Below, piece after piece: positions 1 to 15,898 of a DNA stretch of 50,113 bases. Made by a program: the position numbers and the translations under genes. Below the pieces are notes generated by a model. It did not search any database. It was not told where the DNA came from and saw only the letters and a list, made by a program, of their open reading frames with translations. This DNA is from Nitrosopumilales archaeon (lineage in GTDB: Archaea > Thermoproteota > Nitrososphaeria > Nitrososphaerales > Nitrososphaeraceae): the NCBI GenBank assembly GCA_044507735.1, contig JBIQJB010000015.1, forward strand, positions 1 to 50,113, read 5' to 3'. The first letter of the stretch is position 1. Every line of letters begins with the position of its first letter.

Positions 1-87
1 TTTTCCTCAAGCTCTGGTTTTGTATGGGCTGCTGGTTGCTTTTCCTCAAGCTCTGGTTTTGTATGGGCTGCTGGTTGCTTTTCCTCA
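1..87. repeat. 39-bp tandem repeat, two full copies plus a partial copy (coding, EEKQPAAHTKPEL)
   Basis: TTTTCCTCAAGCTCTGGTTTTGTATGGGCTGCTGGTTGC at 1-39 and 40-78, partial from 79. Confidence 0.95.
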
Positions 88-242
88 GGCACGCTCGGCA
101 CACTTGGCACCTTGCGCGGAGGCATGGTCCGGCGACCAGGGGTTGAAAAAGGCTCTGGAATTGATTCAGGTGTGATTGCCGGTCTGATCGGTCCGTTGTC
201 TGCCTTCAGAGTCCTGTCTACTATTCTCTTGAAGTAGCTCAT
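1..242 (-). CDS. Pro/Glu-rich low-complexity eCIS-associated protein with 13-aa tandem repeats (N-terminal part, runs off window)
   Basis: Not in ORF track. ATG at 242 overlaps the upstream TGA (ATGA). Reads MSYFKRIVDRTLKADNGPIRPAITPESIPEPFSTPGRRTMPPRKVPSVPSVP(EEKQPAAHTKPEL)x2 EE, open to position 1. Confidence 0.8.
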   Translation of the reverse strand, partial: MSYFKRIVDRTLKADNGPIRPAITPESIPEPFSTPGRRTMPPRKVPSVPSVPEEKQPAAHTKPELEEKQPAAHTKPELEE

Positions 243-1069
243 AGGCTTCCCCCCGCTAGCGTTGCGTTCACAAGCTCGACGTACCTTTTCCGCTTTGAGG
301 TCGGGAGTGAGAGAATCTCATTCTCGCTCCAGTGGTAGTGAAACGCCAACCAGTGTACTTCCCGCTCTAGCTGGTGTCCACGTACGCCAAGCTCGCGTAG
401 GACAAACTCTTCCACGGGAAGTGCGGCCTGAAACGAATGGCCGCACTCGGGGCACAAAAGTCTGAGGTTAACATCAGAAAGCGGATCTATCTCTTCAAGC
501 CTTGAACCGATCGCTTCAAGCAGTGCTTCGGGTATTCTTTCTGGAAGCGCAGGTTCAGATCGAACAACACATGCCCTTGCGAGCTCTTGAGCCAGCACAT
601 CTGACCTTGCTGCCTTTGCGACTATGGCATCCTGATCCTCTGCTGTAAGTGGTCTTATCCTAAGGCGGAACCCAGCCGCCTCAAGCCCATAGTCAACCTC
701 GGGAATTGGATGCTCCGCACTCATTATTGTGTCGGCAGAGAGGTCAAGCGACATATCGGCTCCGCAGCTTGGGCAGCTTGTGGTGCACGATATGAGATCG
801 CCAATGATCAGCTTTCTTGCGCTCAAAAGGAGACATGCTCTGTCGCCGAGACTCAGCTTTTTCAGAACGACGGATGTATGCGCGCCTTCAAAAGTGGCTA
901 TCCTTTCCAAAAGTGATACAACCTTTGAGTGCAATGGAGTACTAGCTGGATGTTCCATCAGCAGCTGCTCGTCGTGCCCTGTCATCCTCCGGATAGCGGC
1001 TTTTCTTATCCACTGGCCTTTTGCGTTTCCAGGGACTCCGCGAGGAACTGTAGCCAGGCCTTGCTCCAT
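239..1069 (-). CDS. eCIS baseplate hub assembly chaperone (T4 gp26-like) with C-terminal DUF6760-like motif
   Basis: Two CxxC motifs (CPSC, CPEC), IRRMTGHDE, LSLGDRACLL, and C-terminal EVHWLAFHYHWSENEILSLPTSKRKRY; directly follows the tube gene. Confidence 0.8.
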   Translation of the reverse strand: MEQGLATVPRGVPGNAKGQWIRKAAIRRMTGHDEQLLMEHPASTPLHSKVVSLLERIATFEGAHTSVVLKKLSLGDRACLLLSARKLIIGDLISCTTSCPSCGADMSLDLSADTIMSAEHPIPEVDYGLEAAGFRLRIRPLTAEDQDAIVAKAARSDVLAQELARACVVRSEPALPERIPEALLEAIGSRLEEIDPLSDVNLRLLCPECGHSFQAALPVEEFVLRELGVRGHQLEREVHWLAFHYHWSENEILSLPTSKRKRYVELVNATLAGGSL

Positions 1070-1087
1070 CGCTTATCCATCACTAGA

Positions 1088-1600
1088 TTAAAGGACCGGC
1101 TCTGTCGGCTCCGTCACGCTTTCGTCTCTTTCCCATCCTTCGTTCTCTAGCTTGATTGTCTGGATCGCTACGGCCTCTCCGTTTGAATCCATCTCTGGAA
1201 GAGCTTGGTATTCTGACACCCAGCAGCGGTACACCTTGTATGCGATTGCCACCTGACCGGCCTCATTGAGGACCTCAATCAGTATGTCTTTTCTAAAGTC
1301 CTTGAGCGACACTTCTGCTCCGACATTGTTGCCAAAGTGCCATATCTTATTAGCCCACTTTTCAAACTCCAAGTCATGTGTCACTCCCCTACTCAGCGTT
1401 ATTGCGTCGTATGAAGTCCTACCAGGCGACTTGCGGTTGGTGCTCGGATCTCCACCCTCTCTATGCTCTATCGGTTTTGTCGTGCGCTTGAGCGCGGTCA
1501 TCTTGCTCAGGCCGGCGACGTATCTGCCATCCCACTTGATGCGGAACTTGAAATTCTTGTATGGGTCGAAGCGGTGAGTGTTTACTTCAAATTGCGCCAT
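1088..1600 (-). CDS. Phage tail tube protein (T4 gp19 family, Afp1/5-like)
   Basis: HRFDPYKNFKFRIKW, HREGGD, RKSPGRTSYDAITLSRG, EYQALPEMD, IKLENEGWERD. Start moved to ATG 1600 (MAQF), preceded by GGAGGTG. Confidence 0.95.
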   Translation of the reverse strand: MAQFEVNTHRFDPYKNFKFRIKWDGRYVAGLSKMTALKRTTKPIEHREGGDPSTNRKSPGRTSYDAITLSRGVTHDLEFEKWANKIWHFGNNVGAEVSLKDFRKDILIEVLNEAGQVAIAYKVYRCWVSEYQALPEMDSNGEAVAIQTIKLENEGWERDESVTEPTEPVL

Positions 1601-15201: not shown

Positions 15202-15204
15202 TCT

Positions 15205-15564
15205 CTAGACCTCCTTTGCAAACTCGACCGTTCTGCGCTCCTGGCTGCCCTTGACCAGATAATGCACTGCAACTGTGAGGGTGGATTCAAAGCTCTTAGC
15301 GGTCACCGATTCGACGTGGATGAGATCTTTGAGCCACTGTTGCAGTGCACCTTGAACAAGAAACTGTGTTGCACTTGCAAGCTCGCTGCTATTTGGGGCA
15401 AACACCAGCTGGCCTACTCCGCTTCCAAAGGTCGGTCGGTTGACCCTTTCACCCAAGACTGTGAAAAGCACCTGTTCTACTAGCTGCCTGATATGATCAT
15501 CGCCGGACGCGGTGGCTGTGCGACCACTCCCATCCAACTTGAAAGGATAGTTGAACTGAGTCAT
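15205..15564 (-). CDS. GPW/gp25 family baseplate protein (Afp9-like)
   Basis: HIRQLVEQVLFTVLGERVNRPTFGSG, LVFAPNS. Confidence 0.93.
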   Translation of the reverse strand: MTQFNYPFKLDGSGRTATASGDDHIRQLVEQVLFTVLGERVNRPTFGSGVGQLVFAPNSSELASATQFLVQGALQQWLKDLIHVESVTAKSFESTLTVAVHYLVKGSQERRTVEFAKEV

Positions 15565-15565
15565 T

Positions 15566-15898
15566 TCACGACCCCTTTACCCGTACCTGGGTCACAATCA
15601 CATTTGGAGGCCCTTGAGGGATCTGCTCCGCGCTCTGGCAGATACCAACGCTATTCTGCAATATAGCAGGGCTCCCGTTTATCACGATGCGTGCGGCCGG
15701 GACCAGCCATCTAACCACGACGCAGGGCTGTGGCTTGCCAGAGACGTTGAGCGGGCAGCCGGCGATGGGGTACATGTCCGCAAGCGTGGCTGCAGGCTGA
15801 CCACCCAGCATTACGCGGGCATTTGAAGATATTGTTGAGATCTGCCCTCCATGTGGGCATATTGCCGTCGCGCCAACATGCAAAAGAAATCCCGGCAT
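15566..15898 (-). CDS. PAAR-like spike-tip protein (DUF4280-like)
   Basis: LHVGATAICPHGG, IAGCP, PCVVVRW, GICQSAEQIPQGPP; adjacent to gp25. Confidence 0.85.
   Translation of the reverse strand: MPGFLLHVGATAICPHGGQISTISSNARVMLGGQPAATLADMYPIAGCPLNVSGKPQPCVVVRWLVPAARIVINGSPAILQNSVGICQSAEQIPQGPPNVIVTQVRVKGS

Follow-up and report, generated by a model that had tools for sequence, protein, structure and literature searches.

The window analysed here, meaning the whole stretch of 50,113 nucleotides, is the entire contig C53 of a 55-contig, 2.33-Mb archaeal genome (G000) that is 97% complete. In positions 1-15898 of this window, 11 open reading frames (ORFs) are packed on the minus strand at intervals of -16 to +100 nt according to the ORF listing, and Pfam scans match 8 of the 10 complete ones to families of contractile injection systems (CISs). 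Together with the genes at the end of a second contig, C42, they probably make up a CIS of the Afp/PVC type, i.e., an extracellular CIS (eCIS) or phage-like protein translocation structure (PLTS), that resembles subtype IIa of lineage II and would inject its cargo into target cells, which are likely bacterial. The genes in the window portion of the locus are as follows.

15566..15898, minus strand: PAAR-like / DUF4280-like spike tip, 110 aa, first gene of the long operon (PF05488 and PF14107, sub-threshold)
15205..15564, minus strand: gp25 / Afp9-like baseplate wedge, 119 aa (PF04965, E 1.4e-14, 54.1 bits)
12484..15201, minus strand: first Afp11-like baseplate-J protein, 905 aa (PF04865, E 2.6e-8; TIGR02243, 251.7 bits, cut-off 155.8)
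9695..12499, minus strand: second Afp11-like baseplate-J protein, 934 aa (PF04865, E 1.5e-12)
7095..9698, minus strand: Afp12 / P2-gpI-like baseplate protein, 867 aa (assigned via homologues)
3680..7093, minus strand: DUF6519 (eBAP5) tail-fibre-like protein, 1137 aa (PF20129, E 9e-58)
3178..3579, minus strand: conserved 133-aa ORF between fibre and sheath (no family match)
1602..3167, minus strand: contractile sheath, Afp2-4 / Cis2-like, 521 aa from ATG (PF04984 and PF17482)
1088..1627, minus strand: inner tube protein, gp19 / Afp1-like, 179 aa, start codon uncertain (PF06841, E 1.7e-41)
239..1069, minus strand: T4_baseplate-like, zinc ribbon and DUF6760 protein, 276 aa (PF12322, E 7e-8)
1..242, minus strand: start of a 292-aa protein, first 80 codons (ORF 3-242), continuing onto contig C42 (ORF open across the junction)

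A full cluster with the same gene order and gene lengths, at 40-86% identity, is found in three other archaeal genomes, namely G101 (a single-contig complete genome of the same genus), G218 and G461 (both of other families). An initial annotation of this stretch had listed a sheath, a tube, a gp25 protein, two J proteins, a P2-I-like protein, a DUF6519 fibre, a PAAR-like tip and a hub chaperone, and all of these are present and co-oriented. What it called the hub chaperone is the T4_baseplate and DUF6760 protein at 239-1069, and the name is explained by automatic cluster names, as the atlas clusters of this 276-aa protein are auto-named 'T4 family baseplate hub assembly chaperone' (score 0.96-0.97). 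Its gene lies behind the tube gene, and the same placement is seen in bacterial loci.

As listed, the sheath ORF runs from a TTG over 1602-3281; every homologue alignment starts at residue 39, a Met encoded by the ATG at 3167, so that this ATG is probably the true start and the protein 521 aa long. Its matches among solved sheaths number 21, including Afp2-4 and Pvc2-4, the best being 8bky (E 1.9e-69), its partner entry 8bl4 and 9ezm (E 3.4e-66). The tube protein is 82-86% identical in G101 and G218. In the baseplate, the second J protein has a single solved relative by sequence, 9gtp_1K, a 'Baseplate protein J-like domain-containing protein' from the Streptomyces coelicolor CIS baseplate (9gtp). 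The 867-aa protein has no match of its own in Pfam, NCBIfam or PDB sequence searches; it has 2640 homologues at E<=1e-5, and among the 120 listed, PF09684 (Tail_P2_I) is found in 6 and PF10076 in 5. One of its homologues is named from Candidatus (Ca.) Nitrososphaera evergladensis SR1, and its position is equivalent in the bacterial loci L009, L010 and L013. A direct sequence search of solved structures gave no usable match for the 867-aa protein, the 276-aa protein or the cap protein encoded on C42. DUF6519 is described as the baseplate-anchor domain eBAP5 of eCIS fibres (PMC12923769). The C-terminal third of the DUF6519 protein is divergent, as the orthologues match it at 45% identity across residues 1-819 or 1-916 and less well after that. 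The PAAR-like protein has orthologues at the equivalent position in G101, G218 and G461 (43-62% identity), and the 133-aa ORF has orthologues at 34% identity in G101 and 70% in G218.

Position 1 of the window is a contig end inside a gene and not the end of the locus. The first 55 bases of C53 equal the last 55 of C42 in a match that is unique and reciprocal, and k-mer overlaps of this 55-nt type occur at 43 of the 110 contig ends, which is the mark of an assembly graph. Joined at this overlap, the two contigs yield a single open frame for a 292-aa protein rich in Pro, Glu, Ala and Lys. Within this ORF, at window 1-87, lies a perfect 39-nt (13-codon) tandem repeat in 2.2 copies, and because of this repeat the assembly breaks at the window start; as 39 nt equal 13 codons, the 292-aa frame holds at any copy number. 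In k=31 contigs of other runs one copy of the repeat fewer is seen, which may be a collapse. In three outside assemblies (X9, X10 and X15), the loose ends of the contigs that cover the window start equal, by eye, the C42 sequence just before the repeat. Furthermore, a genome of the same genus, G163, has flanks matching the left of the C42 part and the right of the window on one contig, which supports adjacency. The overlap, the open ORF, the loose ends of the three outside runs and the synteny together indicate that C42 and C53 adjoin. The complete locus then measures 24,858 bp and holds 19 ORFs, all open and tightly spaced. The terminal part of C42 (locus L003) carries the remainder of the 292-aa ORF, the cap and the ATPase on one strand, with the other genes divergent from them:

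C42, same strand as the window genes: Pvc16_N/TIG cap (Afp16, DUF4255) (PF14065, E 1.4e-40)
C42, same strand as the window genes: AAA+ ATPase (Afp15 type), 701 aa (PF00004, E 2.5e-26)
L003 10986-11639, divergent: CIS_tube-like / Afp7-like adaptor, 217 aa (CIS_tube, 23.3 bits, cut-off 27, and predicted fold)
C42, divergent: 96-aa ORF adjoining the adaptor (weak LysM match, E 0.005)
C42, divergent: gp27-like hub, 382 aa (predicted fold)
C42, divergent: gp5-type OB protein, 166 aa (PF04717 Phage_base_V, E 1.1e-26)
C42, divergent: DUF4157(eCIS_core)-OmpA-metzincin cargo, 597 aa (eCIS_core, E 1.4e-35)
C42, divergent: 108-aa ORF

A further 230-aa ORF at L003 15850-16542, which overlaps the end of the ATPase gene, is a shadow ORF and not a gene: in all the genomes the portion of it that is conserved lies antisense to the ATPase C-terminus, and no family matches it.

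Two of the C42 proteins were assigned with the help of predicted structures. The model of the 382-aa ORF (predicted local distance difference test, pLDDT, 84.3; predicted template modelling score, pTM, 0.82; 41-row alignment) matches spike and hub chains of the Anabaena CIS (7b5h_AJ, the best match, E 2.3e-24, template modelling score 0.75) and of the Algoriphagus, Streptomyces and PVC systems, and it matches VgrG and Mu gp44 as well; a direct sequence search of solved structures gave only a hint of VgrG (E 0.052). Judging from this model and the PF04717 match, the Afp8 spike is present, split into the 382-aa gp27-like and the 166-aa gp5 OB protein. For the model of the 217-aa ORF (pLDDT 93.8; 71-row alignment), the best matches come from six CIS structures, including those of PVC, AFP, Anabaena, Algoriphagus and Streptomyces, and are baseplate chains some 224 aa long, with E values of 2e-7 to 3e-6 and template modelling scores of 0.42-0.49. 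With moderate confidence, this protein is predicted to be a tube-baseplate adaptor of the Afp7 (LysM) type.

With these assignments the locus can be set against published definitions. The eCIS core of Chen et al. (2019; PMC6899500) consists of Afp1/5, Afp2/3/4, Afp7, Afp8, Afp9, Afp11, Afp15 and Afp16, and once C42 is added all eight are present, judging from sequence and from the two models. The initial annotation had called the system in the window intact. The locus as a whole does bear an Afp/PVC-like set with every core part, but the window alone holds about 64% of it and is not an intact system, because the cap, ATPase, spike and cargo sit on C42. The features that mark CISs as opposed to prophage tails, which are an ATPase of the Afp15 type, a Pvc16 cap and DUF4157 (PMC6899500; PMC8213781), are all found here, and no head genes occur in the flanks; a myovirus prophage or R-type tailocin was therefore rejected as an identity for the cluster, with no dedicated search having been made for a lysis cassette. 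As to subtype, Chen et al. describe two afp11 genes and a split afp8 in IIa and IIc, an afp10 that is absent only from IIb, divergent afp12 and afp13 in IIa and IIb, and archaeal loci in IIa and IIc (PMC6899500). Here there are two afp11 genes, an afp8 split into gp27 and gp5 ORFs, an afp10 (PAAR), and divergent afp12-like and afp13-like genes, and since this gene content fits, the locus is classed as lineage II and IIa-like, an assignment by gene content and not by placement in a reference tree.

Among characterised systems, several share parts of this arrangement. The CIS of the haloarchaeon Halogeometricum borinquense ('archaeal T6SS', clade IIa; PMC11566945) has, as here, two cis11 genes, two structural subclusters and DUF4157 proteins, and as it is described there neither it nor the present locus has a recognisable homologue of the tape-measure gene cis14. 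Its subclusters are split by an 8.7-kb spacer, whereas here they are divergent and adjacent, and the present host belongs to another phylum, is a chemolithoautotrophic soil ammonia oxidiser, and has a locus whose nearest sequence relatives are bacterial and not haloarchaeal. The S. coelicolor CIS (PMC10066040; 8BKY, 9GTP), also of lineage II, provides the closest solved sheath, and its J protein, hub and adaptor are relatives by sequence or fold. That system is described as acting within its producer and as linked to development, a mode of action not to be expected in a unicellular archaeon. On the Streptomyces side, Chen et al. (2019) assign a single afp11 and an afp8 in one piece to the subtype that lacks the doubled and split genes, unlike the arrangement found here. 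Afp and PVC, of lineage I, share the eight core parts with the present locus and, like it, have a cap, an AAA+ ATPase and fibres, and the PVC and AFP hub and adaptor match by fold; they differ in their fused Afp8, single Afp11, three sheath genes, Afp14 tape measure, insect-active toxins and gene order, and their similarity to the present sheath is limited to the C-terminal domain. The thylakoid-anchored CIS of Anabaena (PMC8894136; 7B5H) is the best match of the gp27-like hub and the second-best of the adaptor, yet its sheath is more distant (E 6e-36) and its anchor is to thylakoids, which archaea lack.

The highest non-archaeal identity is to uncharacterised loci of Dehalococcoidales, Hormoscilla and Moorena (L009-L013), at 52-55% for the sheath and 71-77% for the tube. 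Like the present locus, they keep the order 867-aa protein, DUF6519 protein, sheath, tube, T4_baseplate-like protein, cap and ATPase, and in Dehalococcoidales the set of adaptor, LysM-like and gp27-like genes is likewise divergent. Their hosts are bacterial, and the cyanobacterial loci, unlike this one, have two or three sheath paralogues. By name, the nearest non-archaeal sheaths are those of Dehalococcoidales (55%) and of Hormoscilla and Moorena (52-53%). On plasmids, sheaths of Rhizobium, Novosphingobium, Ensifer and Streptomyces come closest (46-54%), and the 30 best records include none from haloarchaea.

The initial annotation had taken the contig to come from a probable ammonia-oxidising archaeon, and this is borne out by NAC on one flank and ABCE1/RLI on the other, by closest named homologues that are Nitrososphaera or 'Thaumarchaeota' records, and by two full-length matches to archaeal amoA in G000, at C17:115287-115835 (398.8 bits) and C9:29699-30247 (383.4 bits). 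The presence of two amoA matches may reflect a real duplication, a strain mixture or an effect of binning. The left flank on C42 carries MoxR, VWA, transaldolase, transketolase/epimerase, M17 aminopeptidase and ABCE1/RLI; the right flank carries ParB, an HTH-methyltransferase, tRNA-Gly(CCC), NAC, a PUA protein, PhoU and HflX, followed farther away by acetyl-CoA synthetase, M1 peptidase and GlnA. The host is thus an ammonia-oxidising archaeon of the Nitrososphaera type, and the locus, with archaeal core genes on both sides, is chromosomal. Two features to the right of the locus are:

15982..16854, minus strand: ParB-like protein, 290 aa, adjoining the PAAR gene (ParB_N, E 9e-19; HTH_ParB, E 8e-18)
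18603..18676, plus strand: tRNA-Gly(CCC), the conserved right edge of a variable region (also in G163, with different content)

A ParB gene lies beside the PAAR gene in G000, G101 and G218 (60-63% identity), and none lies within 2.4 kb of it in G461; this ParB-like neighbour may be a regulator or part of a mobile unit or island.

The junction between the CIS genes and the core genes is not chimeric. In the outside assembly X9, window 4601-20000 is covered by one contig of 19,625 nt, which shows 18 differences from it; parts of the junction are also bridged by shorter contigs from X10, X15 and X16, and ParB stands beside PAAR in two more archaeal genomes. Loose contig ends at 18648 and 18677, at the tRNA gene, are probably due to other genomes that share the tRNA sequence. 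Near-identical DNA was found in sequencing runs of 8 studies, with no RNA run among those listed. The claim that head and packaging genes are missing holds for the window and for the 11 kb of C42 to the left of the locus, where a provirus might have continued: no capsid, portal, terminase or replication module is present among the annotated ORFs over 11 kb to the left and 34 kb to the right, a result that does not extend to a whole-genome scan for head genes. In composition, the tetranucleotide correlation of the locus (r 0.862) is lower than in 49 of 51 equally sized windows, and its GC content is 0.515 against a mean of 0.484. No att-like repeat of at least 14 nt from the tRNA-Gly region was found within 45 kb to its left, and an integrative element was not borne out, as there is no such repeat and no integrase was noticed among the annotated ORFs.

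In G163, the stretch from L038 7686 to L039 13935 is bordered by transketolase, transaldolase, VWA and MoxR at one end and by tRNA-Gly(CCC), a 201-aa ORF, NAC, PUA and PhoU at the other. The interior of about 26 kb is unrelated and holds a PLD-like protein, a Cache histidine kinase, a KaiC/GvpD-like ATPase and a shortened sheath-like ORF without the middle domain. Because G163 holds other content between equal flanks, the CIS locus sits in a variable region beside a tRNA gene, and the G163 site suggests either the decay of an ancestral locus or a hot spot of gene exchange.

Related loci were counted in other sampled genomes, comprising 200 of the family, 37 of the genus and 400 of the order. 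The sheath query found matches in 13/200, 5/37 and 17/400 of these, respectively. The second J protein matched in 12 of the 400 at E<=0.001 and near full length only in G101, G218 and G461. Full loci are rare, occurring in 3 of the 400 sampled genomes of the order. When 10 sheath-bearing archaeal loci were compared, seven of them (G118, G135, G151, G115, G162, G091 and G163) had the sheath gene alone within the DNA compared; the sheaths of G091 and G162 are on short contigs, and that of G115 is in two frames. The sheath closest to that of G000 is the one of G218, from another family (77%), versus 70% for the full locus of the same genus in G101, and most of the other closest orthologues are also from G218; closest orthologues in another family hint at transfer of the locus within Nitrososphaerales.

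A sheath tree of 23 rows, built with IQ-TREE after one distant L016 paralogue had been dropped, places the sheaths of G000, G218 and G101 and the orphan sheaths of G118, G135 and G151 in one clade (98/94 support), within which the orphans nest among the sheaths of full loci. The remaining archaeal and bacterial rows are unresolved around this clade, so that archaeal monophyly is neither shown nor excluded. In G118, G135 and G151, close relatives that represent three species of the genus, the orphan sheath gene is intact and lies between PAC2 and DNA ligase (L007 10001-11557; L032-L037), and an intact orphan tube gene lies at a separate site beside an adenylate-cyclase-like gene (L048 10234-10740, L049, L050). 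Pairwise dN/dS is 0.19-0.28 for the orphan sheath and 0.04-0.15 for the orphan tube, and 0.05-0.11 for the flanking ligase, PAC2 and Cu-ATPase. Searches of these three genomes gave no match to the second J protein, nor to the Pvc16_N family or a gp27-like profile, both of which were recovered in the controls G101 and G218. At a third site, G118 and G151 have a different Baseplate_J ORF of 541-548 aa, and therefore a reading of these genomes as having a sheath and tube only is not clean.

The cargo gene of the locus encodes a 597-aa protein with a DUF4157 HExxH, an OmpA-type module (37.7 bits, cut-off 27.2) and a C-terminal metzincin motif, HExxHxxGxxH, which is intact; both HExxH motifs are visible in the sequence. 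DUF4157 is a published eCIS marker tied to cargo (PMC8213781). The C-terminal half of the protein has 179 homologues at E<=1e-5, and most of those listed are DUF4157-OmpA or DUF4157-PG_binding_1 proteins; among those listed, the best non-self ones are 55-59% identical and the few named ones are bacterial. In the sister loci, the DUF4157 proteins differ at their C-termini, which are SprT/M48-like, annexin-like, EF-hand or unassigned. G000 has two more DUF4157 (eCIS_core) ORFs, side by side on contig C33 (L051 7075-8673 and 9372-10898), one of which has a weak PG_binding_1 match below cut-off. They are far from the locus, adjoin a Band_7/SPFH gene and riboflavin-pathway genes, and are candidates for unlinked cargo. 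We know of no substrate for peptidoglycan-binding modules in these archaea. A cargo that joins an OmpA-type peptidoglycan-binding module to a metzincin points to bacterial targets, and bacteria are the most likely target of the cargo predicted here.

The scheme of assembly follows that of solved CIS structures and is carried over to the present locus by analogy. The baseplate would be formed by gp25, the two J proteins, the P2-gpI-like protein and the DUF6519 fibre, with a hub inside it made up of the Afp7-like adaptor, the gp27-like protein, the gp5 OB protein and the PAAR-like tip. Tube and sheath would polymerise on this hub and be closed by the Pvc16-like cap, and the AAA+ ATPase may aid assembly or the loading of cargo. 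Contraction of the sheath would then drive the spike and tube, along with DUF4157-tagged cargo, into the target cell.

Several points count against this reading. Both matches of the PAAR-like ORF are below threshold (PF05488, 25.3 bits, cut-off 27; PF14107, 24.2 bits, cut-off 26.3), the P2-gpI-like identity of the 867-aa protein is reached indirectly, via homologues only, and the proposed adaptor has a CIS_tube match below the Pfam cut-off and a fold match with a template modelling score under 0.5. The 292-aa protein is a possible tape-measure analogue by its position and composition alone, and the copy number of the repeat at the C42/C53 junction is uncertain. The composition of the locus is at the edge of the genome range, not outside it, so that the locus may be a fairly recent import, and the peptidoglycan-binding module of the cargo could be baggage from a bacterial donor. 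Finally, the three closest solved sheaths are from cell-internal or membrane systems, which speaks against assuming release.

The word 'extracellular' in the initial annotation was an assumption, given that the nearest solved sheaths come from the Streptomyces CIS, described as acting in the cytoplasm and in cell death (PMC10066040), and from the CIS of H. borinquense, described as membrane-bound (PMC11566945). We lean slightly towards a particle that is released rather than fired while membrane-bound, with somewhat less than even confidence. A rather unlikely alternative is a cell-bound, contact-dependent machine that, as in the haloarchaeal 'archaeal T6SS', would be anchored in the cytoplasmic membrane and fire across the S-layer at a neighbouring cell. 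In its favour, the only archaeal CIS with a known action in the account of PMC11566945, that of H. borinquense in clade IIa, is membrane-bound and similar in gene content, its sheath (9ezm) is among the three closest, and the membrane-anchored Anabaena system is the best structural match of the gp27-like hub. However, crude hydropathy scans found no ORF with at least three transmembrane-like segments in the G000 locus and none that is conserved in or beside the four archaeal loci, although the sequence of Hbor_38620, the six-helix haloarchaeal membrane anchor, was not compared and an anchor could lie elsewhere. The large fibre gene with its variable C-terminus suits free particles, yet anchored systems keep Cis13 too, and it is in soil and aquatic bacteria rather than haloarchaea that the nearest relatives of the sheath occur. 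Action on the producing cell itself, in regulated death or a stress response as in Streptomyces and not as a weapon, would agree with the closest solved sheath being S. coelicolor Cis2 (8bky) and with the Streptomyces baseplate entry as the sole solved relative of the second J protein. It is improbable, as Nitrososphaera is neither multicellular nor differentiating, a peptidoglycan-binding cargo would have no substrate in an archaeal cell, and both the fibre and the polymorphic DUF4157 cargo suit a machine directed at other cells.

Beyond the mode of action, the genes might be the decaying relic of a horizontally acquired tail cluster or prophage tail that is no longer used, an idea with some appeal in view of the patchy distribution, the seven sheath-only loci with the G115 sheath broken over two frames, the different content and shortened sheath at the same site in G163, and the edge-of-range composition. 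It is nevertheless very unlikely for the present locus, where all 19 ORFs are open and tightly spaced, where order and length are kept in the orthologues of three other genomes, where near-identical DNA recurs in the runs of 8 studies, and where the ATPase, cap and DUF4157 mark a CIS and not a prophage tail. An artefact of assembly or binning, by which bacterial CIS DNA would have been misjoined to an archaeal contig, is hardly credible: the genome is a 55-contig draft with a contig break that splits the locus, and the nearest non-archaeal sheaths, at 52-55% identity, are bacterial, but the contigs also carry archaeal core genes to either side of the locus, the X9 contig runs across window 4601-20000, a syntenic locus stands in the single-contig complete genome of the same genus, and the tree groups the six closest sheaths as an archaeal clade (98/94 support). 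An Afp/PVC-like injection system acting on other cells thus remains our preferred and probable reading.

This type of machine is known, and the interest of the present one is in its host and its antibacterial-looking cargo. The initial annotation knew of no characterised example in this lineage, and none was found in the literature that was searched, nor any main-text description of a CIS in ammonia oxidisers, although supplementary lists may name Nitrososphaera loci. Orthologous loci do, however, exist in public genomes. The survey of Sarris et al. (2014) includes 34 Euryarchaeota along with 1 uncultured archaeon, that of Geller et al. (2021) mentions one archaeal phylum, Chen et al. (2019; PMC6899500) count ten archaeal loci that are unnamed in the main text, and Zachs et al. 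(2024; PMC11566945) refer to earlier studies of 'archaeal genomes from different phyla'. In Evseev et al. (2022; PMC9230969), a table row records a sheath of 521 aa encoded on the Ca. Nitrososphaera evergladensis SR1 chromosome, with no discussion of a locus. As this sheath and the SR1 homologue of the 867-aa protein are public, the lineage is undescribed rather than unseen. The present locus extends CISs to an archaeal phylum that is absent from the lists given in the surveys of Sarris et al. (2014) and Geller et al. (2021).

We also consider a broader scenario, which is speculative and on balance doubtful, in which ammonia-oxidising archaea of the Nitrososphaera group would use an antibacterial machine to inject DUF4157-tagged metzincins with peptidoglycan-binding modules into soil bacteria that compete for ammonia or space, and in which sister species would have dismantled the machine and kept the sheath and tube, under purifying selection at separate sites, for another use. 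Ammonia-oxidising archaea are usually seen as slow, self-sufficient chemolithoautotrophs, and to our knowledge almost nothing is known of how they fight or signal to their neighbours. Full locus, sheath-only locus and emptied site occur within one genus, and thus offer a natural series on the gain and loss of such a machine. The prediction may be directly testable, because a named, sequenced strain, Ca. N. evergladensis SR1, carries homologues. If true, it would place a predicted archaeon-to-bacterium injection system in a key organism of the nitrogen cycle, and would provide a concrete and testable route for antagonism between archaea and bacteria in the nitrification communities of soil.

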